A DNA stretch of 64,000 bases, from NCBI GenBank assembly GCA_015233115.1, contig JADFYJ010000001.1, positions 67,084-131,083 on the forward strand, in the 5' to 3' direction. Both the position numbers and the translations under genes were made by a program. Of the stretch, positions 3,387 to 52,848 are shown one piece after another (positions within the stretch are counted from its first letter, which is position 1; every line of letters starts with the position of its first letter). The notes under the pieces were generated by a model. It saw nothing but the letters and a program-made list of their open reading frames with translations, ran no database searches and was not told the DNA's origin. This DNA comes from Candidatus Omnitrophota bacterium (GTDB lineage Bacteria; Omnitrophota; Gorgyraeia; Zapsychrales; Zapsychraceae).

Positions 3387-3520
3387 GGTATGTGGCATGT
3401 AGTATGTAGTTAAAACGATAGATTGGAAAAACGATTACTAAAATCATATGTTTTAGATGTTTTGTTTTTTAAAAATGATAAATTTTTTTGCGACATGCAA
3501 CATGCTACGAACGACATACT
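3387..3520. repeat. Composite intergenic element made of a TATGTRG heptamer array, a GGAAAAACGATTA core, an AT-rich spacer and an inverted heptamer array
   Basis: ggtatgtggcatgtagtatgtagtt at 3387-3411 and its inverted counterpart cgacatgcaacatgctacgaacgacatact at 3491-3520. The core ttggaaaaacgattact lies at 3423-3439. Confidence 0.8.
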
Positions 3521-3532
3521 TTTAAAATTAGG

Positions 3533-5551
3533 ATGCGCAGCATAATGGCCAAAAAAAACAAGCAAGAGATTCTTCAGGAATGCGACACCCAGTTTGATTC
3601 TCTATTTACATCTTTTGGTAAATTGTTGTATGAGAACATTCAAGCTGGTGGCATCTCCTTTTATTTTGATCCTCCGGACGCTGTTTTGACTGCTAGGGCA
3701 AAGCGTTATATCCGGGATATTGTGGTGCAAAAAATTTCTGACAAAAAAGTCAAACCAATGCCGCAAAAAACTGTTCCTAAAGTTGTTCCTAAAGCTGTTC
3801 CAAAAGTTGTGGCTGTGCCGGTTTTGAAACCTAAAAAAAATCAGGTTACGGCTATTTTCAATGGCGCGAAAAATGTTATTATGGGTAAACGGAAAGAAAA
3901 TAAACCGGCCTCTTTAGGCATAGACCGCCGGGGGCAGTTAGAATCATACACGCATTTGGTCGTTGATCTCCATGTCTTTGCCAAAAAGCTTTCTCTCGTT
4001 CAGAAAGATTTTAATCAATGTATTATTAAGGATCTTTTAAGCTCGCCTGGAGAGCAGATTTCATCTTATCAATCGGCGGTTGACGAAAAAATCCGGGAGA
4101 TCATATTATTGATGGCTAAGAAGCAGGAGGTTATAAAAACGATTATGGAAAAGAAAAGACAATTCTTTGCGGAACATACTGGAGCCAAAATGTGGAAACC
4201 CGAAGAAGATTTTTTGAAGCAGGTGCAACAGGACGCGGTTGAAACCACACAACGTATTGATGGTTTAATCAGTGAAGTGGTTGACCTTTTTAAAAACATT
4301 AAAGAACTTTATGATCATGACCTTGAACAGCACCGCTTAGTTCAGGAACAGGAAAAATTGCGGCAAGATTTGGTATCAACGTTTCCTGATTCATCTGTAT
4401 CTTCAGAGATTGACTTGCCAGTTTTGGAAAACACGCCGGAAGAAATTCCTGAATCTTTGGCTGTTTTAGAATCTATTTCTAAAAGTGTACCTGAAGAATC
4501 AGAACAACCTGAACTGCTCGAACCACCAGAACATCTTGAACAGCCAGAACAGCCCGATGAACAAGTGATCATGGTTCCGATCGCGGAACAACAGATCGAT
4601 CAAATTACTGAACAGGAACCGATCCGTCCCACTGAAGAAATTCTGGAGGAAGTGGAAGATTATGGATTGTTCGAAACGGCTGCGCGAAAGTTAGGAAGCG
4701 AAGTTGTAGATAAAGACCAAAAACTTGAAATTTTGCATATGCTCTTTCGCAATTCACCGAAAAAAGTCGTGCCGTTCTTATATGAATTTGTCAGGGATGC
4801 GGATATATTTCCAAAACGTCAATTGTTATTTTTATTAAATATGTTGGATTATCCGGCTATGGTTGGTGTTTACCGCCGATTTGTAACGGATGAAAATTCG
4901 TCAATGCGTCTGCAGGGAGTAATGGGTTTAGTCAAGTTAGATTCTATTGAATCAAAACAAGTGATCGCGACAGCCATTCATGATCGCGATCCGCATATTC
5001 GTAGATTTATTGTGAACCATTTAGATCACAGGGGTAGTGATCCTGAAGCGACAGCGATCGGGCGTTTAGCTGGCGACAGCGATGAGAATGTCGCGCGGAT
5101 TGCCATCCGTAAATTAGGATTAATGGGGAATCATTTCGCGTTTGTCTCTTTAGTTCCCAAGCTTGAGTCTCCGAATATTAAGATCCGTAAAGAAGTTATT
5201 AGTGCTTTGAAAGTCCTGACAGGCACAGATCTCGGATATAATTATGCCGCGACTGACAGTGAATTAAAACGTCATGTCCAGCCGTGGAAGACTTTGGCTA
5301 AGGAAAGTTATATGCATCCTCGTTTGTTACGGGATTTGAAATTAAAACATCTTCCGGCGCCGGGCACACCCAGACTCCAGACTGTAATTTCTAAAGAACC
5401 AAAAAAAACATCTGTAACTTCACAGAGGTCAGTGGTGGCAAAGAAAAAGACTCCGGTCGTGGCCCCCAAAAAAATATTTGCTCCTGCAAAAAGTTCGCAA
5501 CGGATGGCAGTGGTTGTAAATAAAAAAACTGTTAAAAAGAATAAAAGATGA
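3533..5551 (+). CDS. HEAT-repeat protein with KVVPK tandem repeats and an acidic Pro/Glu-rich linker
   Basis: C-terminal HEAT-like repeats (DPHIRRFIVNHL, DENVARIAIRKLG, NIKIRKEVISAL). The start is placed after the inverted heptamer array (ORF opens at 3488), so it is uncertain (3533 or 3545). Confidence 0.55.
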   Translation: MRSIMAKKNKQEILQECDTQFDSLFTSFGKLLYENIQAGGISFYFDPPDAVLTARAKRYIRDIVVQKISDKKVKPMPQKTVPKVVPKAVPKVVAVPVLKPKKNQVTAIFNGAKNVIMGKRKENKPASLGIDRRGQLESYTHLVVDLHVFAKKLSLVQKDFNQCIIKDLLSSPGEQISSYQSAVDEKIREIILLMAKKQEVIKTIMEKKRQFFAEHTGAKMWKPEEDFLKQVQQDAVETTQRIDGLISEVVDLFKNIKELYDHDLEQHRLVQEQEKLRQDLVSTFPDSSVSSEIDLPVLENTPEEIPESLAVLESISKSVPEESEQPELLEPPEHLEQPEQPDEQVIMVPIAEQQIDQITEQEPIRPTEEILEEVEDYGLFETAARKLGSEVVDKDQKLEILHMLFRNSPKKVVPFLYEFVRDADIFPKRQLLFLLNMLDYPAMVGVYRRFVTDENSSMRLQGVMGLVKLDSIESKQVIATAIHDRDPHIRRFIVNHLDHRGSDPEATAIGRLAGDSDENVARIAIRKLGLMGNHFAFVSLVPKLESPNIKIRKEVISALKVLTGTDLGYNYAATDSELKRHVQPWKTLAKESYMHPRLLRDLKLKHLPAPGTPRLQTVISKEPKKTSVTSQRSVVAKKKTPVVAPKKIFAPAKSSQRMAVVVNKKTVKKNKR

Positions 5552-5886
5552 CCAATACGATAAAACAAACACCAACTAAAAGAGCTCCCCGTAAAACCGC
5601 GGCTGTAAAAAAATCCATGACCGGAATTGGCACCCGTATGTCGGAAAGCGCGGAACGCGTCGCGGATATTATTCTTGAGGATAATCCCGGGGAAAAAAAA
5701 TCTAAAACGAAAAAAATTACTGACGAAACTCTTACGATGTTTAAGAGTGTGGCAGAACAAGTCAGAACCAATCTGAAAGATGTGCGTCCACAGGATTTTG
5801 TGGGCGATTTAGCTTATGGCGCAGGCAGAATTTCAGGAGCGACCAAACGAGCGCTGAGCCGCTTATATGATAATTTAACTGATTAA
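5548..5886 (+). CDS. Small basic hypothetical protein
   Basis: ORF start overlaps the stop of the upstream gene (ATGA). No recognisable motif. Confidence 0.4.
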   Translation: MTNTIKQTPTKRAPRKTAAVKKSMTGIGTRMSESAERVADIILEDNPGEKKSKTKKITDETLTMFKSVAEQVRTNLKDVRPQDFVGDLAYGAGRISGATKRALSRLYDNLTD

Positions 5887-6066
5887 TGGTAGATCCTCTC
5901 CGCCTTTGGGGAGAAAACCGGGTCTGGGGCTCCCCATAGTTTTTAAAAACTTAAAGGCAGTTAGACTTAATCGGTTTTCTGTTCAGCATATGGTTAAGAA
6001 TATTTAAGATAATATTTTAACATAATTTGTTAAAATGAAGTCTAACAGAGGGCAGGGTGAGGGGAT

Positions 6067-6249
6067 ATGAATAATAAATTTTTTAACGATCTTGGCCAGC
6101 AATTTTACGCGTGGTACCGGGACCATAAAATTCGTTTTGAATATGGCGGGCAAAGTAAGGACCTGGAGCTAGAAGTTGAACGCATTACAGGACTTATAAA
6201 TTATGTAGAGAAGAAAAAAGCGTCACTTCTTGACAAAAAAATAATTTGA
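6067..6249 (+). CDS. Small hypothetical protein (60 aa)
   Basis: Isolated ORF with an upstream GGGTGAGGGG SD-like sequence. No motif. Confidence 0.3.
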   Translation: MNNKFFNDLGQQFYAWYRDHKIRFEYGGQSKDLELEVERITGLINYVEKKKASLLDKKII

Positions 6250-6361
6250 AATAATACGTATAACTTCTTGATTTTGTTTTTGTTTCTCTTTATAATAAGT
6301 GCAGTTTATAGATAATTCATTTAATTTTCTAAACAAAGCACCCGTTTTCGACGAGGAATTT

Positions 6362-7441
6362 ATGCCAACAGAAAAAACAGCAGCTGGTTCCAATGATTTC
6401 GCGCGCTTTTTAGGATCAACTATCCGACGAGTGGAAAATGATTTCAAATTTTTGACTTTATTCCCTAAGCGTCCATTGCCTAAACCTGTGGCCGTGAAAA
6501 AAGAAATTCCGATTGCTGCTGTTTCCGTTCCTGTTCCCGTTGTTGCAAAGCCTTTGCCGTCGGTGACTTCAGTTAAAATTAATATTCCCGAGCCGGTTAT
6601 TTTTGAAAAAACCAAACCCGCTGTCCCCCATGCTGAAGCGTCACCGGTTGCCGTGGAAAAAATAATTCCCTTGTCAGCTGAAGAGAAAAAATATATTAGC
6701 AAAGAACAAGGATTAAAAAATATTACGTTTGTTAATAAGGCCGAACAAGTTAAAGCGGAAATTTATTTCCGTGATTTACAGTCGTCCAGCCGAGCTTTGC
6801 GTGTTGATGCCTTGCGTGAGATCAGGAAGCTTTCACGGCCGACAGTTATAGCGATATTGGAACAACTCTTGTCCGTCGAAACAGATACGTTACAGATTAT
6901 CGAATTGGTTAATGCTTTAGCCGCGGTTAGTGAAGACACCCAAATCCCTAAAAATTTATTCCGAAAATATATTTCTCATCCTGATGCCGGCATTCGTTTA
7001 GCGGCACTGCGGGCCATTTCAAAATACCGGGATGAAGAAAGTTTTAATGTTTTAACGACCTATCTAAAAGATAAAGATTCGGAAGTCCGCCGGCAAATGA
7101 TTAATTGTTTATGCTGGTCCTTCGGTGAACGCTGTCTGCCGTACGTGATTGTCGCGTTGCATGATTCTGATCCCATTGTCCGTAAGGCGGCCACCCAGAT
7201 TGCCGGTGTTTTAAAATCTAAGCAGGCGATTTCTTCCTTGATTACTCTATTGAGCGATCAGCATGAAGAAGTTCAGTCCGGCGCGGCAGCCGCTTTGAAA
7301 AAAATAACCAAAGAAGATTTTGATTTCAAGGTGACAGGGACAAAAAGAGAAAAAGATGATGCTATCGAATCCTGGCGTTTTTGGTGGAGAGAAAACCAAA
7401 CCCAATTCGAACGAGCTAAAGATAAATTTGTAATTAAATAA
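6362..7441 (+). CDS. HEAT-repeat protein with a Pro/Val-rich N-terminal half
   Basis: HEAT-like repeats (DAGIRLAALRAI, DSEVRRQMINCL, DPIVRKAATQIAG, HEEVQSGAAAALKKI). GAGGAA SD precedes the internal Met at 6362 (ORF opens at 6299). Confidence 0.55.
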   Translation: MPTEKTAAGSNDFARFLGSTIRRVENDFKFLTLFPKRPLPKPVAVKKEIPIAAVSVPVPVVAKPLPSVTSVKINIPEPVIFEKTKPAVPHAEASPVAVEKIIPLSAEEKKYISKEQGLKNITFVNKAEQVKAEIYFRDLQSSSRALRVDALREIRKLSRPTVIAILEQLLSVETDTLQIIELVNALAAVSEDTQIPKNLFRKYISHPDAGIRLAALRAISKYRDEESFNVLTTYLKDKDSEVRRQMINCLCWSFGERCLPYVIVALHDSDPIVRKAATQIAGVLKSKQAISSLITLLSDQHEEVQSGAAAALKKITKEDFDFKVTGTKREKDDAIESWRFWWRENQTQFERAKDKFVIK

Positions 7442-7464
7442 ATGTATATACCAAGGAGGCTGTT

Positions 7465-7650
7465 ATGAAGGGATTACTAATTGCAGTAGGAGTGGTTTTC
7501 GCGGGTTTTGTGGGATACAAAATTATTGAGAAGAAAAATCCCGCACTTTTTAAAAAGATCAAGGGCAATATTACTAATGCCGGAAAAAATATGTCAGCAA
7601 TGGTGGAAGAGGCGAAAGAATCATTTTATGAAGGTTACGCTCAAGGCTAA
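7465..7650 (+). CDS. Small single-pass membrane protein (61 aa)
   Basis: Strong SD (AAGGAGG) 6 nt upstream. N-terminal hydrophobic helix LLIAVGVVFAGFVGY. Confidence 0.5.
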   Translation: MKGLLIAVGVVFAGFVGYKIIEKKNPALFKKIKGNITNAGKNMSAMVEEAKESFYEGYAQG

Positions 7651-7665
7651 TAAAGGGAAATAACT

Positions 7666-8040
7666 ATGGCTGTCAATAAATCAACTTTTAAAAAATGTTC
7701 GGTCAAGGGTTGCCGCAATAAAGGACTGGCTAATGGCCGCTGTCTAAAGCATGCTAAGATCTCTGCGTCAACGCATGTCGCTCCTGTTAAAAGAACTGTA
7801 TCGCATATCAAAAAGGTACGCGCGGCGCATGTTGAACATGTTAAAGAACCAGAAGTAAAAGTGGTTCATGCCGCGCCAGAAGAGAAAAAAGTATTAAAGC
7901 TTGAAGCGCCAGCGGTTATGAAACATAAAGAACAAAAAGTTTCTGGCCGACATAAAGGACCCCTTAATTCTGTTTGTTATTGGGCCGGTACGTTTTTTAG
8001 CGACACGACGGAGATTTTTAAAATACAAAAGGCGAAATAA
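7666..8040 (+). CDS. Basic zinc-ribbon-like protein (CxxC...CxxH)
   Basis: KKCSVKGCRNKGLANGRCLKHAK cysteine/histidine pattern. Lys-rich. Sits within the + strand operon. Confidence 0.4.
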   Translation: MAVNKSTFKKCSVKGCRNKGLANGRCLKHAKISASTHVAPVKRTVSHIKKVRAAHVEHVKEPEVKVVHAAPEEKKVLKLEAPAVMKHKEQKVSGRHKGPLNSVCYWAGTFFSDTTEIFKIQKAK

Positions 8041-8043
8041 TTT

Positions 8044-8814
8044 ATGATGAGACGAATATGTGTCGCGAATCAAAAGGGCGGGGTTGCTAAAACTACGACC
8101 TCATTAAATTTGGCGGCTGAACTGGCGCGGGCAGGTAAAAAAGTTGTTTTGATCGACATGGATCCTCAGTTTTCTTCGACGGCAGCCATTTTTGGCAATC
8201 AACGTTTTGAATTTAATATTTATAATGTCATTGTTGATAAGATGGATATCCATTCGGTTATCCAGCATTCAGACGCTTTTGGCATTGACGTTGTGCCAAG
8301 CGATATTGAATTGTCCGGCGCTTCCTTGAGGATTAATGAGCAGATCGGGCGGGAAAAAGTTTTGTACCATTATACCCGCAAACTGAAATATGATTATATG
8401 ATCGTGGACGCGCCGCCGTCTTTGGGCTTGCTAACTGTCAACGCTTTGACCGCGTGCGATGAACTGCTGGTTCCGATTTGTCCTGAATTTTTTTCGTTAA
8501 AGGGGATTAAACTTCTGGAAGAGATAGTGGAGAATGTACGGGTCGGGTTAGGGTGCGATATTAAAATTACGGGTGTGGTGATTACGCGTTATCGCGAAAG
8601 GTTAGTGACGAATGAAGCGAGGAACGCGATCAGAAATTATTTTGGCAAGAAAGTATTTAAAATTGAAATTCCTGAAAATATAAAGTTAGAAGAAGCTCAC
8701 AACGCCCATCTGCCGGTGTATAAGTACGATGTGAAATCAAAGGGGGCGGAAGCGTACCATCAATTAGCAAAGGAGATTATGAATGGGAGATTCCAGAAAA
8801 ATCCAAGCAAGTAA
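8044..8814 (+). CDS. ParA/MinD-family P-loop ATPase
   Basis: Deviant Walker A NQKGGVAKTTTSLNLA, then LIDMDPQ, then IVDAPPSLG. Classic ParA/Soj arrangement. Confidence 0.85.
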   Translation: MMRRICVANQKGGVAKTTTSLNLAAELARAGKKVVLIDMDPQFSSTAAIFGNQRFEFNIYNVIVDKMDIHSVIQHSDAFGIDVVPSDIELSGASLRINEQIGREKVLYHYTRKLKYDYMIVDAPPSLGLLTVNALTACDELLVPICPEFFSLKGIKLLEEIVENVRVGLGCDIKITGVVITRYRERLVTNEARNAIRNYFGKKVFKIEIPENIKLEEAHNAHLPVYKYDVKSKGAEAYHQLAKEIMNGRFQKNPSK

Positions 8815-9604
8815 GGAGACGGATACGACATCAAGAAGAAAAAAGCTTATTGATAATCCGCTTCTTCAATCAACTGTAAGAATGTCTTCGCACCGGGACA
8901 GCGAACCTGAACTTGCGTCCAGGTCTTCCATCCGTTCCGCGGTAAGGCAGATTAAAGATTCGACTAAGTACATCATGTCTCCTGATGAAGAAAAGGCCAG
9001 TGTTTTTGAAATTATTTCAGATTTAGAAAAACAGCTGGATGCCGCGTTTAGCATTAAAGATGCTCAGGAAAATGAAATCCAGAGTTTGAATACCAAAGTT
9101 GATAATGCTCAGGAGAAAGCCGGGATGCTAGAGGCTAAACTCAAAGAGATGAAAGGTTTGCTGGTTTCTCAGGAAGAATTGAATTCTGAGTTGGAATTTC
9201 TCGAGAATGAACGTTTGGAAACAGTCGGCAAAACCAAGTCTTTGGAAGAAGATTTGGTAGGGCGCGAAGCTGTTATTAAAGATCTGGAAAATAAAATTGC
9301 TTCCCTTCAAAAGGAATGTGAAAGCCGGGATACCAGAATAGAACAAATCGAACTGGAACTTTCCAGCGCGAATAAAACGATTCAAAGTTTTCATCATCAG
9401 ATCTCGCTATTGGAAGATGAGAAAGAAGCAGTTACCAATAAACTTGAAAAAACTGACGGTGAACTGAGCAGTACTATTACCGAGCGTGATCAGCTTAAAC
9501 GTGAGTTAGAACGCGCTAAAGAAAGTCTGGACGAGATTCGTTTGATGTTAGCCGATACTCGCTCCCGCGCGCGCGAACATTATTACAAACCAAAAGGAAA
9601 ATAG
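8783..9604 (+). CDS. Coiled-coil protein
   Basis: Heptad-rich E/K/L composition throughout (LEAKLKEMKGLLVSQEELNSELEFLENERLE...). Start uncertain (the ORF overlaps the parA-like stop). Confidence 0.5.
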   Translation: MGDSRKIQASKETDTTSRRKKLIDNPLLQSTVRMSSHRDSEPELASRSSIRSAVRQIKDSTKYIMSPDEEKASVFEIISDLEKQLDAAFSIKDAQENEIQSLNTKVDNAQEKAGMLEAKLKEMKGLLVSQEELNSELEFLENERLETVGKTKSLEEDLVGREAVIKDLENKIASLQKECESRDTRIEQIELELSSANKTIQSFHHQISLLEDEKEAVTNKLEKTDGELSSTITERDQLKRELERAKESLDEIRLMLADTRSRAREHYYKPKGK

Positions 9605-9624
9605 TTATAGTAAGGAGTTTTAAT

Positions 9625-10617
9625 ATGGGACAGCCTAAAGGCTTAGATGTGGGTACGATGAACCTGGTAGGCGCGGAACAAGGCGCTGACGGCAAGATTA
9701 AGTTGAAATTGGTTCGTCACACTTTCTTGGATATTGACGCGAATTCTTTTACCTTGAACATGCTGAAAAAACAAAAAGTTCAGTATGCTGAAATGGGTAA
9801 AAAAGTTTATGTTTTAGGTGATTCAGCTTTTGAATTGGCTAATATCATGAATAAAACCGTCCGACGTCCAATGCAGGATGGTGTCATGAGTCCAGGCGAA
9901 GCTGATGCTCTGCCAATTTTTGGCCTTTTGATCGAAGCGGTTTTGGGCAAACCTACAGAAAAAAATCAGTTATGTTATTTCTCTGTCCCTGCAGACCCGG
10001 TCGACGCTAATTTTAATATTGTTTATCACACCAGCGTTATTATCGGCGCGCTTAAGAATTTAGGATATACTCCTAAGCCCATGAATGAAGGTCACGCGGT
10101 TGTATTCGCGGAATTAGGTGAAAAAGATTTTACCGGAATTGGTATTTCAGCCGGCGGCGGTATGTTTAATATTTGTGTTTGTTATAAAACAATTCCTGCG
10201 ATTAGTTTCGCGACCAGCCGTGCTGGTGACTGGATTGATAAAAACGTGGCGCAAGTACTCGGTATTAAAACAACTCGCGCGACCGCAATTAAAGAAAAAG
10301 GAATTAATATTTATAAGCCGGCAAACCGCGAAGAAGAAGCGGTTTGTATTTATTATCGGAATTTGATTAATTATACGTTAGTCAATATTAAGAATAAATT
10401 TGAAACAGCAGAATCAATGCCTCAATTTCCGGAACCGATTGAAATCGTGTGTGCCGGCGGTTCTTCTATGATCAACGGATTTGTGGATGTTTTTAAAGAG
10501 GAACTAAAGAAAATGACCTTCCCGATTCCGATCAGCGATGTCCGTCTAGCCAGTGAACCGTTGTACGCAACAGCAAGAGGTTGTTTGCTTGCAGGTCTAA
10601 GCGAAGTTGATGAGTAA
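9625..10617 (+). CDS. Actin-like ATPase of the MamK family (MamK/Mad28-like)
   Basis: Conserved blocks shared with MamK: GLDVGT (phosphate 1), YVLGDSAFE, RRPMQDGV, TGIGISAGGG (phosphate 2) and IVCAGGSSMINGF (adenosine motif). SD AAGGAG is upstream. Confidence 0.75.
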   Translation: MGQPKGLDVGTMNLVGAEQGADGKIKLKLVRHTFLDIDANSFTLNMLKKQKVQYAEMGKKVYVLGDSAFELANIMNKTVRRPMQDGVMSPGEADALPIFGLLIEAVLGKPTEKNQLCYFSVPADPVDANFNIVYHTSVIIGALKNLGYTPKPMNEGHAVVFAELGEKDFTGIGISAGGGMFNICVCYKTIPAISFATSRAGDWIDKNVAQVLGIKTTRATAIKEKGINIYKPANREEEAVCIYYRNLINYTLVNIKNKFETAESMPQFPEPIEIVCAGGSSMINGFVDVFKEELKKMTFPIPISDVRLASEPLYATARGCLLAGLSEVDE

Positions 10618-10665
10618 TTTGTGAAATTTTTACGGGGACATGATACGTAATTTGTGGGTTTTTAG

Positions 10666-10739
10666 TTGTTGGATGTTGGTTGTTGGTTATTGATATAATC
10701 GCTTTTTCCAAAAACCAAAAACGATCAACCATCAACCAA
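10666..10739. repeat. Composite intergenic element made of a TTGTTGG heptamer array, an inverted core ATCGCTTTTTCC and an inverted CAACCAA array
   Basis: gttgttggatgttggttgttggtt at 10666-10689, atcgctttttcc at 10698-10709 and caaccatcaaccaa at 10726-10739. Confidence 0.8.
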
Positions 10740-10792
10740 ATTATGTTTCGTGTCCCCTGATTAATATAACTTTCTTACGAAAGAGGGCGGGA

Positions 10793-12238
10793 GTGGGTGA
10801 AGATGAATTAGCAAAAGTCAGGGAGAGACTTTCGAAAATAAACGAAAAAATTAAGCAGTATTCCTCCGTAAAAAATCCGCAGTCTGCTAAAGAAAAACCT
10901 TTTGATTCTTCCCGATATAGACAAGGCAAAGAAATTTCTGTTGAAAAAATGCACGCTAAATTGCGGGCCATTAATCAATATGTCCGGGATCGTGCTTTAG
11001 GTAAAGATGTGGAATATCCGGTCAGGGAAGAAGTTGAAGTCGAAGAAGAAATTGAAGCCCCTGTCGCTCAACCTGCTCCCGTGCCTGAACGACGTGTAGT
11101 CCAACGGATTTCCAATGAAGTGGTTATGGAAAAGGCTGAGGCAATTGGTGAAGTGATGGATGAGTCAGCCGTCACCAAACCTGAAGAAGCCACTACCGCG
11201 GATTTGCCGGGAACTTCACGGGTTGTGGAAGCGGCGCGTCTTGGCGTCGGCCTTGATCTGGGAACCGCGTATATTGTGTCCAGCCGTGAAGTGGAAGATA
11301 AACGGGTATTTGTCAAAAATGAGCGGAATGCTTTTTTGTCGGTTCGGTGTGATACCGCGACGAAAGAACTTTTGAGCAAACTCAAAGTTAAATATGTCGC
11401 TTTGGGCGAGAAACTGTATGTTTTAGGAACTATGGCGTTGGAATTAGCGGACATGTTCGGACGTGAAACACAGCGGTCCATGAATATGGGAATTCTTAAT
11501 CCGTCAGAATCGGAATCGATTCCGATTATCAAACTTTTGGTGCAGAATATTTTGTGGGCGCCCCGTCAGCCAGGAGAAATTTGCTGTTTTTCCATTCCTG
11601 CCCAGCCTATCGACCGCGATCAAGATACGATTTATCATCGGGGAGTTTTTGAAGGAATTTTAAAGAGCATAGGTTTTGACGCGATGGTTATTGATGAAGG
11701 TTACGCGGTCGTTTTATCAGAAATGGAAAAACAAAATTTTACCGGTATAGGTGTTTCTTGCGGAGCGGGCATGGTTAATATTTGCGCAGCTTTTCAAACA
11801 GTGCCAGTATTGTCATTTTCGATTACGCGCGGTGGAGATTGGATAGATAAAAACGCGGCAACAGTTTTAGGGATTCCTACGACCAGAGTTTCATCAATCA
11901 AAGAGCACGGCATGGATTTAAAAAATCTTAAAAACCGCGAAGAAGAAGCGATCGCGATTTATTATCGTAATTATATCCATTATTTGTTAGAGAGCATGGC
12001 GAAAGTATTTGGAGACAGTGCAAACACATTAAATTTTAAGGATCCCGTGGATATTGTTTTTGCAGGCGGATCTTCGATGGTTCCGGGCTTTATTGATGTG
12101 GTCAGAGAAGAAATTAAATCTATTAAATTTGCTTTTGCCCTTGGTAATGTGACCAGAGCGGACGAGCCTTTCACGAGCGTGGTACGGGGTTGTTTGTTTA
12201 ACGCGATCAATGCGGGAAATAAAACGAATGAGTCCTGA
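10793..12238 (+). CDS. MamK-family actin-like ATPase with a ~150-aa N-terminal extension
   Basis: C-terminal 330 aa are paralogous to 9625..10617 (GLDLGTAY, YVLGTMALE, TGIGVSCGAG, IVFAGGSSMVPGF). GTG start with an upstream AAGAGGG SD. The N-terminal extension is charged with a Pro-rich stretch. Confidence 0.7.
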   Translation: MGEDELAKVRERLSKINEKIKQYSSVKNPQSAKEKPFDSSRYRQGKEISVEKMHAKLRAINQYVRDRALGKDVEYPVREEVEVEEEIEAPVAQPAPVPERRVVQRISNEVVMEKAEAIGEVMDESAVTKPEEATTADLPGTSRVVEAARLGVGLDLGTAYIVSSREVEDKRVFVKNERNAFLSVRCDTATKELLSKLKVKYVALGEKLYVLGTMALELADMFGRETQRSMNMGILNPSESESIPIIKLLVQNILWAPRQPGEICCFSIPAQPIDRDQDTIYHRGVFEGILKSIGFDAMVIDEGYAVVLSEMEKQNFTGIGVSCGAGMVNICAAFQTVPVLSFSITRGGDWIDKNAATVLGIPTTRVSSIKEHGMDLKNLKNREEEAIAIYYRNYIHYLLESMAKVFGDSANTLNFKDPVDIVFAGGSSMVPGFIDVVREEIKSIKFAFALGNVTRADEPFTSVVRGCLFNAINAGNKTNES

Positions 12239-12821
12239 CATTTCAGGTTTGACCGAAGATCCGGAAATTTTGGTACAAAAATATTCCAAACGCTTAGATG
12301 ATATCCGTATGGCACGGCATCAATTGGACGGCGAATTTTTAACCACGAATACATCTCTCAATGATTTTATCTCTTCCACCGATGCGGTTATTCACCGTTT
12401 GATGACTAAAAAAGCAGAACCTAAAAAAATGACGATTGTCCCATCGGCTGACGTCATTTCCTCTCAGCCGCCGTTAGTCGCGCCAGCTGGCGGACAAGCG
12501 ATGACGCTAGAGGATTTTAAAACTCATATGGGGTCGATTTTGCAAGGTTCTTTGGAAGCGGCTACGGATAAGATTTCTAATCGCATCCAAGGGATGCTGA
12601 AAGAATTAAGAGGATTGTCCGGCCCCGCGCGCGACGCGAAATATCGCGAGATCCAGCAGGTCGCTGAATATGAAATGATTGATATTTCTCAACTTTATAA
12701 ACATGAAGAAGTACAAAGTAATTTAGGCGAAATCGGGGTTGCTGAAACTGAAACTAAAAGTATCGACGCGAATTTGGAGCGCCTGCGTAAAATGCGCGGC
12801 TCGAAACCTAAAAAAGAGTAA
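12210..12821 (+). CDS. Hypothetical protein
   Basis: ORF overlapping the stop of the upstream gene. An alternative start lies at 12228. No motif. Confidence 0.45.
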   Translation: MREIKRMSPDISGLTEDPEILVQKYSKRLDDIRMARHQLDGEFLTTNTSLNDFISSTDAVIHRLMTKKAEPKKMTIVPSADVISSQPPLVAPAGGQAMTLEDFKTHMGSILQGSLEAATDKISNRIQGMLKELRGLSGPARDAKYREIQQVAEYEMIDISQLYKHEEVQSNLGEIGVAETETKSIDANLERLRKMRGSKPKKE

Positions 12822-12835
12822 CAAAAGAGAACGAT

Positions 12836-14008
12836 ATGATTATAATTTTTGGTGTTTTGATATTTTTGGCTTCATTGGCATTAATTGATTTTGTTTTTCT
12901 ATTTCAAGACATCCTTAAACTAGAAAAAGCAGCTAAGGGTCAGGGCGATGGTGAACATAGCGATGTGACCCGTTTAAAGCAGGATTTAGAGTTCAAGGTT
13001 AATGAGTTATCAGCGAAAGAACAAGAGATCCGGCGTATTACGTCTGATTTAACCAGACTGCAAAATCAGCAAAAAAGCGTTATGCTGGAAGCAGAATCAG
13101 CCTCTGCAAAAGATAATGAAATCAAACGCCTGACCATTGAGTTAGCGCATATGACGGATCAAGCCAAAGAAATTGCTAAAGTAAAAACCGATTTATCCGC
13201 TGCTCTTTCAGAAACGCAGGATTATAAAAATAAGGTTGAACAGATTCGGCTCGAGTACGACAAAATTAAAGCTGAACTTACCAAAAAAATTGCTGAAGGC
13301 TCGACCGCGAATACGGCTAGCCAGGAATATGAAAAAAACATTCAACAATTAAACGCGGAAGCTAAGAAATTTAAAAGTGAGCTGGACAGCAAGATCAATG
13401 AGCTTATTCTTGCTCAGACAGATGCACAAGAAAATAAGAAAAAATTGGTTCAGGTTCAAGCTGACTATGACAAACTGAAAGTTGACTTAAATCTTAAGAT
13501 CACTGAAGGCACTGCTGCACAAGCCACATCGGAAGCGTCCCAAGAAAATCTTCGCCAGCTTCATAATGAACTCAAAAAATTAAAAAATGATTTAGAACTT
13601 AAAACCACTGAGTTGGCAGATAAAGATATAGAAGTTAAAACAGTTGCCGCGGAATTGGCTAAAATACAATATCAGCAAAAAAACGCGGTTAAAAGTAGTC
13701 AGGATTTGACTGAAGGTTTAAGTAAGCTTAAGAAAACTGCCGACGAATTAGATTTAATTGAAAAGTCTTTGGATGAAGAAAAAAAAGCTTTGTATGAAAT
13801 GAAAACCCGGTTTCAGGAAGGCAAAATGAAACTAGGACTTTTGAGTGAAAAAAGTAAAGAATCGGTGGAACTCATCGCCCAGTTTGCTGAAGGCAAAGAA
13901 TTTGAAGAATTCCGCAAATCCATCCACATGGACGAGATCATTAATAAATATGAAGGTGAAATTAAAAGTTTAAAGTTGAAGGTTTTAGATCTCGAAAAAA
14001 AAGTTTAA
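12836..14008 (+). CDS. Membrane-anchored coiled-coil protein
   Basis: N-terminal hydrophobic helix IIIFGVLIFLASLALIDFVFLF followed by about 350 aa of heptad-rich coiled coil. Confidence 0.55.
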   Translation: MIIIFGVLIFLASLALIDFVFLFQDILKLEKAAKGQGDGEHSDVTRLKQDLEFKVNELSAKEQEIRRITSDLTRLQNQQKSVMLEAESASAKDNEIKRLTIELAHMTDQAKEIAKVKTDLSAALSETQDYKNKVEQIRLEYDKIKAELTKKIAEGSTANTASQEYEKNIQQLNAEAKKFKSELDSKINELILAQTDAQENKKKLVQVQADYDKLKVDLNLKITEGTAAQATSEASQENLRQLHNELKKLKNDLELKTTELADKDIEVKTVAAELAKIQYQQKNAVKSSQDLTEGLSKLKKTADELDLIEKSLDEEKKALYEMKTRFQEGKMKLGLLSEKSKESVELIAQFAEGKEFEEFRKSIHMDEIINKYEGEIKSLKLKVLDLEKKV

Positions 14009-14020
14009 ATTTAATAATCA

Positions 14021-14042
14021 GCAACCAACAACCAACAACCAG
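14021..14042. repeat. Three tandem CAACCAA heptamers (inverted orientation of TTGGTTG)
   Basis: gcaaccaacaaccaacaaccag, lying between the coiled-coil gene and the sensor kinase gene. Confidence 0.8.
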
Positions 14043-14059
14043 TGATTACAATATGATCG

Positions 14060-15514: not shown

Positions 15515-15517
15515 AAA

Positions 15518-15641
15518 TGTAACAGTGTGACAATGTGACAATGAAAAAGCGATTAATGGGAAGAAAATGTACGGTTTTAAAAAATAATTTTTATTTTTTG
15601 TTTTTTGCATTGTTACACTGTTACATTGTCACACTGTCACG
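15518..15641. repeat. Composite element made of a GTRACART octamer array, a GAAAAAGCGATTAATGGGAAG core, an AT-rich spacer and an inverted octamer array
   Basis: tgtaacagtgtgacaatgtgacaatg at 15518-15543 and its inverted counterpart cattgttacactgttacattgtcacactgtcacg at 15608-15641. Confidence 0.85.
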
Positions 15642-15672
15642 TTATTGATATAACAACTATTGAGGCTAAATT

Positions 15673-24400: not shown

Positions 24401-24714
24401 AGGAAGGCGCGATCAGTTTAACTGGATATCATAAAAATCTTATTATTACCCTGACGCATGACAAAGACGCTAATATGCTGCTCGTGAGTTTTACCGATAA
24501 TGGCATTGGTGTTCCTGATGAATTTAAGAAAAAGATTTTCGATCCTTTTTTTACGACCAAGGAAGTTGGTAAAGGGACAGGTTTAGGTTTATCAATCAGT
24601 TATGGTATCATTGAATCTCATAAGGGAAGAATCGAAATTGAAAGTAAAGCGGGTGAAGGCGCGGTATTTAAGGTATATCTGCCAATAGAAAAGCGTGACT
24701 ATGTAACAGTGTGA
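21472..24714 (+). CDS. Sensor histidine kinase (periplasmic Cache-like domain, HAMP, three PAS/PAC, HisKA, HATPase)
   Basis: TM helix, periplasmic domain, second TM helix plus a HAMP domain. Multiple PAS domains. H-box [16 protein letters not shown] and GKGTGLGLS. Start uncertain (21430 or 21472). Confidence 0.85.
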
Positions 24715-29147: not shown

Positions 29148-29179
29148 ACTATATTTGAAATTGTCATTATTTTGTATTA

Positions 29180-38700: not shown

Positions 38701-38704
38701 ATAA

Positions 38705-38872
38705 TTAACCAGCTGAAATGGCGTTGACTGGGCAAACTGTAGAACAGACTCCGCAATCAATACACTTCGCGGGATCGATTTTATAAGGAGTGCCTTCTGA
38801 AATAGCTTCAACAGGACATTCAGGTTTGCAAGTTCCGCATGCGACACAAGTATCACTAATTTTATAGGCCAT
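38705..38872 (-). CDS. 2x[4Fe-4S] ferredoxin (55 aa)
   Basis: CVACGTCKPECP and CIDCGVCSTVCP. Start placed at the internal Met preceded by an AAGGGGG SD. The longer ORF (to 38959) adds a non-conserved hydrophobic extension. Confidence 0.75.
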   Translation of the reverse strand: MAYKISDTCVACGTCKPECPVEAISEGTPYKIDPAKCIDCGVCSTVCPVNAISAG

Positions 38873-43840: not shown

Positions 43841-43901
43841 AGATCTCTCACCTAACGGTTCGATATCCTCAAAAAATTACTTCGTAATTTTTTTCGGAGA
43901 G
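43841..43901 (+). repeat. Upstream tRNA-Ser element (copy 3), ending in a tRNA 5'-like GGAGAGG fragment
   Basis: agatctctcacctaacggttcgatatcctcaaaaaattacttcgtaatttttttcggagag. This is the reverse complement of 26814-26874. Confidence 0.8.
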
Positions 43902-43967: not shown

Positions 43968-44052
43968 GGAGAGGTGGCAGAGCGGTTGAACGCGCACGCT
44001 TGGAAAGCGTGTGACTCGCAAGGGTCCCAGGGTTCGAATCCCTGCCTCTCCG
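43968..44052 (+). tRNA. tRNA-Ser(GGA)
   Basis: GGAGAGG acceptor. Anticodon stem CACGC/GCGTG with loop UUGGAAA. Long variable arm. CCAGGGTTCGAATCCCTGG T-arm and discriminator G. Confidence 0.85.
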
Positions 44053-44261
44053 TTTTAAATTTAATCAGCAAAGGGATGAGAACCCAAAAGGGGTTAGTAA
44101 GGGGAAAGCTTGTTTCCCCTTTTCTCTAGAGGGGTGACACCCCTGCCGTTTTGATTCGTAATCAAGAATACAAAACGAATCAGCAGGGGGCCAGAGGCTG
44201 AGTGACCCCCTATGGAGAGGATGAGCGAATAGCGAATCCGAGTTCGTTTCCCTGCTCTCCG
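44053..44261 (+). repeat. Single 209-bp variant of the tRNA-linked repeat unit (with a ~45-bp insertion), ending in a degenerate tRNA 3' mimic
   Basis: The opening (tttaaatttaatcag...aaagggatgagaacccaaaagggg) and closing (ctatggagaggatgagcga.tagcgaa..cgagttcgtttccctgctctccg) blocks match the 166-bp unit at 29447. Confidence 0.85.
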
Positions 44262-44303
44262 TTTATTTTTATATCGTCCTTGATGAGAATTCTATAATCA
44301 TCT

Positions 44304-49154: not shown

Positions 49155-49162
49155 TAAAAATA

Positions 49163-49336
49163 GTATGTGGTATGTAGTATGTAGTGAAAAATACGTATAA
49201 AATAGCAAGGCATAACTAATTATTGAAATAAAAAACAGATTTGTTTTTTGCGCTTTTCCAGTAAAGAATTTTAACGATATATTATTTTTTCAAAAACAAT
49301 TATATCTTTACTACATACGACATACTACATACGCAT
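49163..49336. repeat. Composite element made of a TATGTRG heptamer array, an AT-rich spacer with a GGAAAAGCGC-like core and an inverted heptamer array
   Basis: gtatgtggtatgtagtatgtagtg at 49163-49185 and its inverted counterpart ttactacatacgacatactacatacgcat at 49308-49336. Same heptamer family as 3387-3520. Confidence 0.85.
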
Positions 49337-49350
49337 AATTGGATAAAAAT

Positions 49351-49905
49351 ATGGATTTAGAGAAACTTTGGGAAAAAGCGCTTAAGAATACGGAGATTAT
49401 CCGCTCACGGATCCAGGGCATGTCAGCTTTGGCAGATACGCGGGTTCCTTATATTTTGCTTTCTGAATCGGAAGTCGATCAACACGATACAGTCATCCGT
49501 AAAGGGGAATTAATCGTACAGAAACCATCATTGGTTATTCCGCCGTTTAATCCGCAATTTAATGGTTTTGAATTTGAAAAGGATTTATCGGTCAATCAAA
49601 ATTCTTTCGTTAATTTTTTGATTGTGCGGGGAATCAGCATGCCGTCTTTTCTTTACGACAATCAGGCTGGTTCACTGGATATTTGTGAAATCAGTTTGAG
49701 CAAAGCGATTAAGGATCAATTGACTGCATTACAGCAGAAAGAGGATGTGATGACCGGACTTATTGCTGGCCCGTCAGATTGTTGGCAAATGTCTTTAATT
49801 ATTTTTATTTGCACACAAATTTTACGCAATACAGAAACAGATTTTCGGCATTTATTAGAGCAATATAGAAAAAGTGATAGAGGTGATAAAGGAAAAATCG
49901 ATTGA
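49351..49905 (+). CDS. Hypothetical protein
   Basis: ORF opens with TTG at 49339. First ATG at 49351. No motif. Confidence 0.4.
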   Translation: MDLEKLWEKALKNTEIIRSRIQGMSALADTRVPYILLSESEVDQHDTVIRKGELIVQKPSLVIPPFNPQFNGFEFEKDLSVNQNSFVNFLIVRGISMPSFLYDNQAGSLDICEISLSKAIKDQLTALQQKEDVMTGLIAGPSDCWQMSLIIFICTQILRNTETDFRHLLEQYRKSDRGDKGKID

Positions 49906-49959: not shown

Positions 49960-52557
49960 ATGAAAATGATGCGCATTTTAAGTGTTATGTTATTTTTGAT
50001 ATTATTGTCAGGCGGATCCCAGGCGGCAGAATTAACAGCGACGAAATATACTTTGGATAATGGTTTAACAGTTTTAATTACTGAAGTTCCGACTAGCCCG
50101 GTTATTGCGGTTTATGGTTTAATTAAAACAGGATCTGCCCGGGAAGGGAAATTTCTTGGATGCGGTGTTTCGCACTTTGTGGAACATATGCTTTTTAAAG
50201 GGACAGATAAGCGCGGAGTAGGCGAAATTCCGGCCCAGGTTCAGGCCGCAGGCGGATCAATTAATGCGTCGACCGGTACTGATTACACGATGTTTACGAT
50301 TAATGTTCCCAAAGATCAATTTGATTTGGGTTTGGATATTTTGTCCGATATGCTGATGCATCCTAAATTTGATCCAGTGGAATTGGAAAAAGAGCGGCTG
50401 GTTATTTTAAAAGAAATGGAATTATATGAAGATGAGCCTGACCATAGGCTCAACAAGCTTGTGTCTCAAAATGTGTATCTGAAGCATCCTTACCGTCATC
50501 CCATTATTGGTTATCCGGATTTATTCCGCAATGTTTCGCGTGACGATTTGGTTGAATATTTTAAATCCCGTTACTCGCCGAACAATACTATAATTTCCAT
50601 TGCCGGGAATGTAAAAAAAGATGAAATTTTTCCGAAGATAAAAAAAATATTTGAAAGTTTTTCTCGCAAACCGGACTTAAGCATGGCCGTGCCGCAAGAA
50701 CCGACACAAATCAGTAAACGTTTTTATGAAGAGGCATATCCGACGGACGTTACGCGCGTGTCTATGAGTTTTAGCGGGACCAGCATGAATGATGATGATA
50801 TGGTGCCGCTGGATGTTTTAGCAAAAATACTGGGGCAAGGTGCCAGTTCGCGGTTGTATTTGGATGTTTATAAAAAACGTCAACTGGTTTATTCAATCGG
50901 AGCAAATGATTCTACGCCGGTTGACCGCGGCTCATTCGAGATTGAAGCTTCGCTCGATTATAAAAATATCCCGGCCTTGGCAGATGCGGTTTGGCAAAAT
51001 ATTCGTCAAATCCAATTACAAGGGGTAACAGCTAAAGAATTAGAAAAAGTTAAAAATAGCGTATTAAGTGAATACGTGTTTGATCATCAAACCGCCAGTT
51101 CTTTGGCTTATAGTCAAGCTATCGGGGAGGCTTTTTTAGCAGATCCTAATTATGACGCGTATTATATCCAATCCATTAAGCGTGTTACATTGGATGACAT
51201 AAAGCGTGTGGCGCGAAAATATTTACAAGAAGATAAACTGACCGTTGTTATTTTAAAACCGCAAGAAATTCAAGCTGAGTCGAAAAAAGAAAAAAGTATG
51301 GTTAATGCGAAAAATGGCGAAATCGTAAAATTTGAACTTAAAAATGGAGTCAGGGTATTACTGCGGCAAGATAATGCGTTTCCTGTTGTATCGGTTCGCT
51401 TAGTTCTTAATGGAGGTTTGCGCCAAGAGACTGCTGATAATAACGGTATATTTTCACTATTAGCGTCAACATGGACGCGCGGCACCAAGAAAATGAAGCC
51501 TGATCAAATGGCTGAATTGCTTGAGTCCTCAGGAATTGGTTTAGGCGGCTTTTCAGGAAACAACAGTTTTGGGTTAAGCATGAGTTGTTTAAAAGAAAAT
51601 TTTGATCAAGGTATGATTCTTTTCATGGATGCGCTCAGAAATCCACTTTTTTCTGATGAGGAAATTTCTAACACTAAAAAGAATATGCTGGAGGGTATTA
51701 GACGGCGCAAAGACGATATCATGACTGAGTCAGGTTTTACCCTGAAACAAAAACTATACGGATCACATCCGTACGGCATGGATCAATCAGGGACGGAGAC
51801 GAGTATCCCGCGTTTAGACCGTAAAGCTTTACTGGCGCTTTATAAACAGTATGTTTATCCGTCCAATATGGTATTTTCCGTTTTCGGCGATATTGACGTT
51901 GATACAGTTAGAAAGAAAATTGAAACATTGTTTAGCGCGATTCCTGACCGGCCTGGGACAATTTGGCCTTCAGTCCCGGTAAAGGAAATAGCTGCACCGG
52001 TAGATTTTGTTTTAAATATGGATAAAAAACAAGCCTTGGTGTCGTTTGGTTTTATCGGTGTTGATTTCAAAAATAATGACCAATATAGTTTAAAAGTTTT
52101 AATGACGATATTGGGCTCATCCTTTGAAGGCCGCTTGTTTCAAAAAGTCCGGGAAAAACTCGGGCAGGCGTATCATGTCGGAGGATATTCCAGCCCAGGA
52201 GTAGACCGGGGACAATTGGTTATTTATTCTTTAACTTCGCCGGAAAAAGCGGCAGGCGTTAATAAGATCATGACCGATGAAATACTGGATATTCAAAAGG
52301 GAAACATCAGCGATAAAGAAATAAATGATGCTAAAGCGTATTTGAAAGGCACTTTCCAGGCAGGATTGGAGACGAATGACGCGTTAAATTTTATTGCTAC
52401 TTTAGATGAACTTTACGGTTTAGGGTATGACAATTATACCAAATTCAGCGCTGAAATCGACGCCGTGACCAAAGATAAAGTCAAGGAAGCAGCCAACAAA
52501 TATCTAGATCTTAATAAAAGAGTGATAATTACAACAATTCCCGTTGCGCAACGGTAA
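49960..52557 (+). CDS. Two-domain M16-family zinc peptidase (pitrilysin-like) with a signal peptide
   Basis: Inverted zinc motif HFVEHMLFKGT and the downstream E of the HxxEH...E triad. Duplicated M16 halves. Signal peptide ILSVMLFLILLSGGSQA. Confidence 0.85.
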   Translation: MKMMRILSVMLFLILLSGGSQAAELTATKYTLDNGLTVLITEVPTSPVIAVYGLIKTGSAREGKFLGCGVSHFVEHMLFKGTDKRGVGEIPAQVQAAGGSINASTGTDYTMFTINVPKDQFDLGLDILSDMLMHPKFDPVELEKERLVILKEMELYEDEPDHRLNKLVSQNVYLKHPYRHPIIGYPDLFRNVSRDDLVEYFKSRYSPNNTIISIAGNVKKDEIFPKIKKIFESFSRKPDLSMAVPQEPTQISKRFYEEAYPTDVTRVSMSFSGTSMNDDDMVPLDVLAKILGQGASSRLYLDVYKKRQLVYSIGANDSTPVDRGSFEIEASLDYKNIPALADAVWQNIRQIQLQGVTAKELEKVKNSVLSEYVFDHQTASSLAYSQAIGEAFLADPNYDAYYIQSIKRVTLDDIKRVARKYLQEDKLTVVILKPQEIQAESKKEKSMVNAKNGEIVKFELKNGVRVLLRQDNAFPVVSVRLVLNGGLRQETADNNGIFSLLASTWTRGTKKMKPDQMAELLESSGIGLGGFSGNNSFGLSMSCLKENFDQGMILFMDALRNPLFSDEEISNTKKNMLEGIRRRKDDIMTESGFTLKQKLYGSHPYGMDQSGTETSIPRLDRKALLALYKQYVYPSNMVFSVFGDIDVDTVRKKIETLFSAIPDRPGTIWPSVPVKEIAAPVDFVLNMDKKQALVSFGFIGVDFKNNDQYSLKVLMTILGSSFEGRLFQKVREKLGQAYHVGGYSSPGVDRGQLVIYSLTSPEKAAGVNKIMTDEILDIQKGNISDKEINDAKAYLKGTFQAGLETNDALNFIATLDELYGLGYDNYTKFSAEIDAVTKDKVKEAANKYLDLNKRVIITTIPVAQR

Positions 52558-52576
52558 GGGATGTGTAAAATATTAA

Positions 52577-52848
52577 GTAACCGAGTAACCGAGTAACCGA
52601 GTAACCGAGTAACCGAGTAACAAAGTAACAGAGAAAAAGCGATTGGTGGAAAAGTGCAAGAGCAGTAAATAAGAAAAAATTAATTAATAAAATTAAGTAA
52701 ATTTCATGTCGTAAATTAGGATTTTAAGCGAAATTATATTTTTAAATTTTTTATTATTAATGTTTTTAATTGTTTTTTGTTAGATTTATTTTTTCATTTT
52801 TTTTTGTGTTTTTACTCTGTCACTCGGTTACTAGGTTACTTTGTTACT
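52577..52848. repeat. Inverted pair of NGGTTACT octamer arrays (7 inverted copies and 4 direct copies) flanking a 185-bp AT-rich spacer with a GAAAAAGCGATTGGTGGAAAAG core
   Basis: (agtaaccg)x5, agtaacaa and agtaacag at 52577-52632. ctgtcact, cggttact, aggttact and ttgttact at 52817-52848. Same octamer family as 94-125. Confidence 0.9.

Follow-up and report, generated by a model that had tools for sequence, protein, structure and literature searches.

What are the short tandem repeats that recur between the genes of an Omnitrophota genome, often as inverted pairs? They lie in a stretch of 64,000 nucleotides, hereafter the window, at positions 67,084 to 131,083 of contig JADFYJ010000001.1 (assembly GCA_015233115.1, Candidatus Omnitrophota bacterium). 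An earlier description made from the DNA letters, hereafter the sequence-only reading, had proposed a family of intergenic elements built from 7-8-nt units and had considered operators, hairpin modules or a non-autonomous mobile repeat as explanations. Our analysis resolves eight loci, E0-E7. The explanation we favour, with about even confidence, is that they are members without an open reading frame (ORF) of a class of intergenic fold-back cassettes, widespread but apparently without a name, that anatomically resemble the intervening sequences (IVSs) of rRNA.

Arrays of period 7 or 8 were detected by requiring at least three copies, at least 75% unit-to-unit identity and passage of a low-complexity filter, and the null model consisted of 100 first-order Markov simulations of intergenic sequence. 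The 5,556 intergenic bases of the window contain 11 such arrays, half of them with an 8-nt period, versus a simulated mean of 0.34 and maximum of 2, while the 58 kb of coding DNA contain two weak arrays versus 4.0 expected. With Tandem Repeats Finder (TRF), arrays of these periods with at least 2.9 copies were exclusively intergenic. These data, obtained within the window, support the sequence-only reading: intergenic DNA holds more arrays than chance predicts, and every array cited in that reading was recovered in place or at most 3 nt away. Four unit families are present, GYATGTR, TTGTTGG, GTRACART and AGTAACCG, each common to two loci (E1/E6, E2/E3, E4/E5 and E0/E7, respectively). Within an arm, a 5-6-nt part of the unit is constant and changes are limited to a few positions, as in GTRACART and AGTAACNN.

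Five of the eight loci are inverted pairs: E1 (3387-3520), E2 (10662-10740), E4 (15512-15643), E6 (49160-49334) and E7 (52574-52852). All features are described on the plus strand unless noted. In E1, a left arm of three GYATGTR units (3387-3411) starts 4 nt past the stop of the gene at 2841-3383, a core-like TTGGAAAAACGATTACT, the core minus 1 nt, was read directly at 3423-3439, and a right arm of diverged inverted units (3488-3520) ends 24 nt before the ATG (3545) of a HEAT-repeat gene. E2 is flanked by two actin-like genes, with a ParA-like gene further upstream, and comprises a left arm of about four TTGTTGG units (10662-10695; TRF and our detector), an exact core GAAAAAGCGATT on the minus strand (10697-10708; motif scan) and a right arm of CCAAAAA/CAACCAA units (10708-10740) upstream of the actin-like gene at 10793. 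The left arm of E4, three copies of GTRACART (15512-15543), starts at the stop of the kinase gene at 14060-15514 and is followed by the core GAAAAAGCGATTAATGGGAAG (15543-15563; motif scan) and by a T-tract and right arm of four AYTGTYAC units (15601-15643), which ends 29 nt before a REC-REC gene at 15673. In E6, 3.5 copies of GTATGTR (49160-49187) begin 6 nt past the stop of a C1-peptidase gene, and 3.5 copies of YACATAC (49308-49334) end 4 nt before the ORF at 49339-49905. The largest element, E7, has a left arm of AGTAACCG x 5 + AGTAACAA + AGTAACAG (52574-52633) starting 17 nt past an M16-peptidase stop, a core GAAAAAGCGATTGGTGGAAAAG (52633-52654; motif scan), an AT-rich spacer of 157 nt between core and right arm, and a right arm of four inverted units (52812-52852) that overlaps TTG 52841, the listed start of a T2SSE-ATPase ORF.

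The inverted-pair plan, which the sequence-only reading had described for at least six intergenic regions, holds for these five elements but not for the other three, which are single-armed or cut by the window edge. E3 is a single right-type arm of three CAACCAA units (14015-14045) located 15 nt upstream of the PAS-kinase gene at 14060. E0 shows only a right-type arm, about five (N)GGTTACT units (89-129; TRF, our detector and alignment to the right side of E7), preceded by a T-rich tract (34-88) and ending 13 nt upstream of the FecR-domain gene at 143; its left arm, if any, would lie before base 1. E5 is homologous to E4 and opens with GTGACTAT GTAACAGT GTGACAAT followed by a core-like GAAAAAACTATGGGAGAG (24696-24737 in all), and its right arm has decayed to about one degenerate unit (~24806-24822). 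The left arm proper of E5 (24696-24719) covers the stop (24712-24714) of the kinase gene at 21427-24714, as the sequence-only reading had noted at 24703. The octamers at 24696-24714 encode the last six codons and the stop of this 1095-residue sensor kinase; thus, the element has reshaped the C-terminus of the gene.

All elements of the window are placed between protein-coding ORFs. Left arms start 0-20 nt after the upstream stop codon, apart from the E5 arm that overlaps it, and the right arms of E0-E4, E6 and E7 end 2-52 nt before the next start codon. The proposed placement after kinase genes applies to only two of the eight. The spacers are A+T-rich, with an opening A-run plus the core GAAAAAGCGATT and a closing T-run. 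The arms pair over 21-46 positions, at only 82-95% complementarity, and the stem continues past the arrays, as the A-run after the left arm pairs with the T-run before the right arm. RNA folding gave z-scores relative to dinucleotide shuffles of -3.6 (E1), -7.5 (E4), -5.2 (E6) and -6.5 (E7). No element matched Rfam at gathering or E-value thresholds, and scans of the elements for promoter and terminator consensus sequences found nothing specific. A resemblance to RNA sites of the HutP (UAG-N4) or PUF (UGUA) type extends to only some of the units, and we know of no HutP- or PUF-type protein in this organism.

Are these elements related by descent? The 64 kb hold exactly three copies of the 12-mer GAAAAAGCGATT: those of E4 and E7 are on the plus strand, that of E2 is on the minus strand. 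Each exact copy touches an arm, and none lies outside the elements. When up to one mismatch was allowed there were 8 matches versus 1.8 expected, a number reached in 0 of 100 shuffles. The conserved core of the sequence-only reading is thereby upheld for these three copies, including its reversal at E2, although the E7 copy starts at 52633 rather than 52636. The left arms of E1 and E6, 46 kb apart beside unrelated genes, are identical at 22 of 23 positions, with the same order of unit variants. E4 and E5 share the 19-nt run ATGTAACAGTGTGACAATG followed by AAAAA; E4 has one extra octamer and the core of E5 a 3-nt deletion. E0, in turn, can be aligned to the right side of E7. These similarities show the copies at unrelated loci to be homologous. 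E2, E4 and E7 have the core in common but not the arm unit, and matching arms are found beside different genes, a pattern that suggests copying to new sites followed by rapid evolution of the arms. The core was not found in the 125 loci from other genomes and metagenomes that were compared and is therefore specific to the lineage of the window. The possibility that it forms the start of a small peptide (MKKRL...) was discarded because frames and lengths are inconsistent between copies.

The sequence-only reading had pointed to related genomes as a check on mobility, and such a comparison did reveal absence: four Omnitrophota loci syntenic to 49-54 kb (L004, L139, L140 and L141), whose M16 proteins are 45-51% identical in amino acids to that of the window, contain no period-7/8 arrays in ~90 kb. 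The M16-peptidase gene of the window spans 49960-52557, and the M16 proteins of its nearest relatives are ~51% identical. The M16-to-T2SSE spacer measures 64-128 nt in three of the four syntenic relatives versus 283 nt in the window.

Similar elements were found in other lineages by searches starting either from DNA or from protein. For the former, metagenomes were scanned for four consecutive octamers with a GTRAC core, the unit type of E0, E4, E5 and E7. At least 120 metagenomic loci, with G+C contents of 26-72%, match this pattern, and for 29-30 of the 120 matches listed a partner array in inverted orientation lies no more than 700 nt away. Many of the listed contigs also bear arrays of unrelated, unselected 7-/8-nt units, often as inverted pairs. 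The metagenomic arrays abut stop and start codons and lie mostly between co-directional genes; among the listed loci, convergent genes flank one array (L024) and divergent genes another (L118). Their spacers range from 0 to ~600 nt, and among the matches listed the spacers of ~390-590 nt contain an ORF in six of eight pairs. These ORFs match Pfam PF05635 ('23S rRNA-intervening sequence protein'), which is NCBIfam TIGR02436 ('four helix bundle protein'), and their proteins also give weak matches to PF22296 (bAvd). Long spacers without a convincing ORF are present in L019 and L070. A profile made from five spacer ORFs retrieved seven ORFs among the 120 listed loci, every one beside arrays: six are clearly bracketed by inverted arrays, and in L110 the ORF is split and just one of its sides has an array. 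The association extends to units that were not selected, as in L085, where the PF05635 ORF is flanked by TAATGCC heptamers between V-ATPase genes. The four-helix-bundle gene of an Ignavibacteria-like locus likewise has arrays of both orientations around it. Viral contigs carry GTRAC arrays too, 14 of the 120 viral loci listed having an inverted partner, and none of these 120 loci has a PF05635 ORF; a phage origin of the elements thus found no support.

The protein-side sample comprises 18 loci (4 from metagenomes or metagenome-assembled genomes (MAGs) and 14 from plasmids) of Planctomycetota, cyanobacteria and Gemmatimonadota, and all 18 have 7/8-mer arrays flanking the PF05635 ORF. Up to 200 nt from the ORF ends, arrays are 12.7-fold denser (35 in 7.2 kb) than in the rest of these loci (40 in 104 kb). 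The four non-plasmid loci (L126, L129, L133 and L136), which were picked for long contigs only and include a Phycisphaerae MAG, all have the ORF bracketed by inverted octamer arrays of the GTACCTGA or AGTAACGA type and located between co-oriented genes. In L133 these are the genes for the alpha and beta subunits of 2-oxoacid:ferredoxin oxidoreductase (PFOR), and within 20 kb a single unit family occupies at least six array loci, of which some have the gene and others lack it. In a tblastn search of 72,556 plasmids, the protein turned up in 41 records; besides Gemmatirosa, almost all of these are cyanobacterial, among them Nostoc (21) and Calothrix (4). In each of 14 plasmid loci inspected, 7/8-mer arrays adjoin the ORF, and in at least ten they form a clear inverted pair, for example (GGGAGTA)x8 ... 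ORF ... (TCCCTAC)x4 in Nostoc edaphicum and GGGTGTR ... YACACCC around the ORF in N. punctiforme. The cassettes are found within operons, including cas6-cas4 (twice), cas10-cmr3, parA-parB and those for ribonucleotide-reductase subunits, V-ATPase and PFOR alpha/beta, and their ORFs are co-oriented with the neighbouring genes in nearly all cases. Thus, whether the search starts from DNA or from protein, the arrays are associated with the four-helix-bundle gene.

Differences between related contigs were also seen. One array differs by a single 8-nt unit between L132 and L129, which are otherwise identical contigs from different samples. In the related Planctomycetota-like contigs L126 (9926-10437) and L129 (8756-8850), a GTACCTGA-type element is located just upstream of a URO-D gene; it is gene-less in L129 and has a four-helix-bundle ORF inside in L126. 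L129 and L136 both have an ORF-bearing copy upstream of uvrD. This pattern points to cargo, or entire cassettes, having been gained or lost between relatives. Cassettes with their arrays also lie inside CRISPR-Cas operons of Anabaena sp. 90 pANA02 (L264), Pseudanabaena galeata (L269) and Picosynechococcus PCC 7003 (L274). A large clustering study listed '23S rRNA IVP' among CRISPR-associated families (PMC10910872), and cassettes of this kind may explain such scoring.

The closest known counterpart is the rRNA IVS. That of the Coxiella 23S rRNA is 428 nt long; its terminal inverted repeats form a stem of 28 bp, inside which RNase III cleaves, and its loop holds an S23p ORF. The sequence is regarded as selfish and is sporadic among relatives (PMC4990558). 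The IVSs of Coxiella, Leptospira and Salmonella share with our elements the terminal inverted repeats, a stem of ~20-45 bp around a loop, long forms with a PF05635 (S23p, four-helix-bundle) ORF in that loop and a sporadic distribution, and in both cases the sequence would be part of a host transcript, as is known for the IVS and predicted for the window elements. The stem is well formed in E1, E4, E6 and E7, and the loop ORF is present in 7 metagenomic, 4 MAG and 14 plasmid loci of the same architecture. By contrast, IVSs are inserted in 23S helices 9, 25 or 45, whereas the elements lie between protein-coding genes (the window has no rRNA gene), their arms consist of tandem 7-8-nt units, and the window copies have no ORF.

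We therefore propose the following mechanism by analogy with the IVS. A cassette would consist of an array of 7- or 8-nt units at or just past the upstream stop, a spacer and an inverted array ending before the ribosome-binding site of the next gene, with the PF05635/TIGR02436 gene inside the spacer in the full-length relatives of other phyla. The element would be co-transcribed with its neighbours, its arms would pair into an RNA stem of 21-46 bp and RNase III would cut that stem; these three steps probably take place. The flanking cistrons would remain intact after cleavage, so that the insertion would be tolerated. The element would then persist as a selfish or neutral passenger that may incidentally alter the stability or translation of its neighbours, with new copies arising by a copying step and the arms changing thereafter by replication slippage. 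Both the hairpin module and the non-autonomous mobile repeat of the sequence-only reading come close to this proposal. The elements do fold back, and homologous copies at unrelated loci, a core in both orientations, absence from syntenic relatives and longer, gene-carrying forms are as a mobile repeat would predict.

Several observations weigh against this proposal. A six-frame search up to E = 10 found no PF05635 gene or remnant in the window, and class membership thus rests on the architecture and on the related GTAAC/GTGAC unit. The samples from elsewhere were selected, the metagenomic one for GTRAC octamers and the protein-side one by similarity to array-flanked seed proteins. E2 has a fold z-score of -0.9, indicating that its hairpin is no better than that of shuffled sequence, and E5 and E3 have one arm each, such that any action would be single-armed. 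Arm copy numbers are often unequal, with no unit-by-unit compensatory change. In the window, whole-spacer folds favour the plus strand and the stem pairs comprise 10 G-U versus 3 A-C. However, in a fairer test with arm-only duplex energies, 16 of 28 elements favoured the sense and 12 the antisense strand; this test for RNA-level selection was thus negative, and we dropped the asymmetry as a sign of it. Moreover, reading of the flanks of the window elements, L126 and L133 gave no consistent direct repeats indicative of target-site duplication, and we know of no mobility enzyme for the elements.

The negative strand test, together with arms that are imperfect, unequal and uncompensated, means that pairing might matter in DNA, or that the arrays might be primarily protein-binding sites. 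Comparison with the known heptamer repeats bears on the latter. Tandem heptamers have been known as STRR since 1990. Like the window arrays, which consist of at least three tandem copies and also include 8-nt units, cyanobacterial STRR and TAACTGA heptamers are tandem units of ~7 nt, with copy numbers from 2 to more than 10; nearly all are intergenic, and a start codon is often only a few nt away (PMC4679880; bioRxiv 10.1101/2022.06.06.494920); they too have strain-specific content, whole-unit indels and no accepted function. The window right arms are placed, as are forward TAACTGA arrays, within a few nt upstream of a start codon. Thus, the view that the feature matches nothing known stands insofar as Rfam is concerned but not otherwise, as the arrays belong with these known, unexplained repeats. 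However, the window units are not TAACTGA, several unit types occur per genome, and the arrays form inverted pairs around a spacer, whereas the BOGUAY genome has only 1 indirect repeat in 170 sets (PMC4679880). A post-transcriptional regulator was proposed for the TAACTGA sets preceding start codons in Beggiatoaceae, the repeats being shared with cyanobacteria and Bacteroidetes (PMC4679880), and a repeat-binding regulator was proposed for the Nostoc heptamers (bioRxiv 10.1101/2022.06.06.494920).

Two further groups of elements share part of this anatomy. Miniature inverted-repeat transposable elements (MITEs) and REP/REPIN sequences are likewise short and intergenic, with inverted ends, several copies per genome and coexisting gene-carrying and gene-less forms. 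In E2, E4 and E7, however, it is the inner core that is conserved and the arms that differ from copy to copy, opposite to what a MITE shows; target-site duplications were not seen in the flanks of the window elements, L126 and L133, and the cargo is not a known transposase. The cargo of the long forms falls in the same four-helix-bundle superfamily as Avd of the diversity-generating retroelements (weak PF22296 matches; PMC10053308), but the reverse transcriptase, template repeat and variable repeat of Avd systems are absent beside the cassettes examined. A broader proposal, which we put forward tentatively and hold to be more doubtful than not, is that STRR and other heptamer repeats of cyanobacteria, Beggiatoaceae and Bacteroidetes, rather than being independent regulatory sequences, are the arms of a single widespread, selfish, IVS-like cassette family that has invaded intergenic hairpin loops in operons as well as 23S rRNA helices. 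The Avd-like four-helix-bundle protein of the full form would recognise the arrays and mediate copying or RNA processing, and the Omnitrophota elements would be gene-less derivatives.

Among the rival explanations, the best surviving one, unlikely in our estimation, is that the arrays are bound, as RNA or DNA, by an oligomeric protein with sequence specificity, which would thereby control how the downstream gene is translated or transcribed, with the inverted partner only modulating access. It is most plausible for the single arms E3 and E0. The binder could be the Avd-like four-helix-bundle pentamer or a post-transcriptional regulator like that proposed for the Beggiatoaceae repeats. The 5-6-nt constancy of the unit within each arm is what such a protein would require, and one unit recurs at several loci per genome, both in the paired loci of the window and in L133. 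Single right-type arms lie directly upstream of start codons at E3 and E0, like most BOGUAY TAACTGA sets (PMC4679880), arms are unequal in copy number, and the four-helix-bundle gene adjoins the arrays. By contrast, at least three unrelated unit families are present in 64 kb with no candidate binding protein in the window, and the units are extremely diverse across genomes, so that many binding specificities would be needed. A 7-8-nt period would also fail to keep the units on one face of a DNA helix.

It is quite improbable, in our view, that the arrays are neutral by-products of replication slippage or template switching in weakly constrained spacers, hypermutable and possibly contingency loci, with no hairpin or mobile function. 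Slippage accords with the whole-unit changes between L132 and L129 (8-nt indel) and between E4 and E5, with the absence of arrays from related Omnitrophota and with the expectation that periods that are not multiples of three would be kept out of genes. However, slippage alone leaves unexplained the inverted partner arrays, the 12-mer core at three loci with different arms, the near-identical arms at unrelated loci, the restriction to 7-8-nt periods and the 12.7-fold concentration around one gene family.

We consider it very improbable that the elements are invertons, in which the A+T-rich spacer would be turned round by recombination of the two inverted arms, switching the downstream gene on or off. 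Their anatomy, inverted repeats of 21-46 nt around spacers of 25-190 nt full of -10-like hexamers, would suit this, and the core of E2 is reversed relative to E4 and E7 with arm polarity unchanged, as expected of a flipped spacer, but reverse insertion of the whole element accounts for E2 equally well. Moreover, no recombinase gene is present among the 47 genes scanned, one site-specific enzyme could not serve all loci given their different arms, and in nearly all relatives that carry the gene, the ORF points the same way as its neighbours.

In parC, iterons flank a promoter, and there are 7-bp heptads to which ribbon-helix-helix proteins bind; the setting of E2 recalls both. The last rival, that the arrays are operators for the nearby paralogous response regulators, as the sequence-only reading had suggested, or ParR-/omega-type iteron centromeres, is nevertheless hardly credible: E4 and E5 do lie between kinase and receiver genes and E2 between actin-like genes downstream of a ParA-like gene, but the six receiver proteins (at 15673, 16559, 24839, 26025, 34682 and 40845) are limited to REC, kinase or PAS-GGDEF-EAL domains and have no recognisable DNA-binding output domain, six of the eight elements flank non-signalling genes, and the class sits in many operon types of other phyla (V-ATPase, PFOR, ribonucleotide-reductase, par and cas genes), such that domain content and context appear already to have largely refuted the operator idea.

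The window itself has ~40% G+C and a strongly positive GC skew, and its plus strand carries all 47 larger ORFs, which encode mainly signalling proteins, cytoskeletal-type proteins and one hydrogenase cluster. The sole convincing minus-strand protein gene is a 55-residue 2x[4Fe-4S] ferredoxin ORF (38706-38872) inside an apparent 341-nt spacer. The cluster at 143-14008 encodes a FecR-domain protein, a DtxR-type iron repressor fused to FeoA, three HEAT-repeat proteins, a ParA/MinD-like ATPase, coiled-coil proteins and two actin-like proteins (Pfam 'Volactin', E = 1e-78 to 1e-82), and could be a cytoskeletal or organelle-positioning cluster. Magnetotaxis occurs in some Omnitrophota.

A different kind of repeat accompanies the tRNA-Ser genes. 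A 166-bp unit, in 2.3 copies at 99% identity, is found at 29426-29807 and 44040-44270; each copy opens with the 3' end of tRNA-Ser(CGA) (GTTCG..CCTGCCTCTCCG) followed by a G+C-rich self-complementary stretch, and a related sequence follows tRNA-Ser(GGA). These look like reiterated scars of an attachment site or integrative element, or a tRNA-linked repeat. A 43-nt inverted repeat (86% complementary; 26844-26886 and 29168-29210) encloses a 2.3-kb segment between two tRNA-Ser genes, similar sequence adjoins a third tRNA-Ser gene as judged by eye (~43841-43890, also 26800-26850), and partial tRNA-like duplicates lie at ~26639 and ~29253. In the relative L004, a 76-bp unit in 2.2 copies (8817-8980) located upstream of a tRNA gene cluster differs in kind from the tRNA-linked repeat of the window.

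Tandem heptamers, rRNA IVSs and the PF05635 family were already known. Within a full-text literature search of incomplete coverage, which leaves an earlier description possible, there was no mention of the inverted-pair architecture or of a link to the four-helix-bundle gene, and the architecture was not reported for Omnitrophota, Planctomycetota, Ignavibacteria-like or Gemmatimonadota sequences. Several contigs end within or beside such arrays, and the arrays may break assemblies. As E5 illustrates, cassettes can add codons to gene ends. Bacterial heptamer repeats have been on record for over three decades, and no function has been accepted for them; the abundant four-helix-bundle/S23/23S rRNA IVS protein family is likewise uncharacterised; our analysis finds the two together. 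Their joint occurrence provides a testable model in which the stem would be processed by RNase III, the protein would bind the arrays and whole cassettes would be gained and lost between strains.

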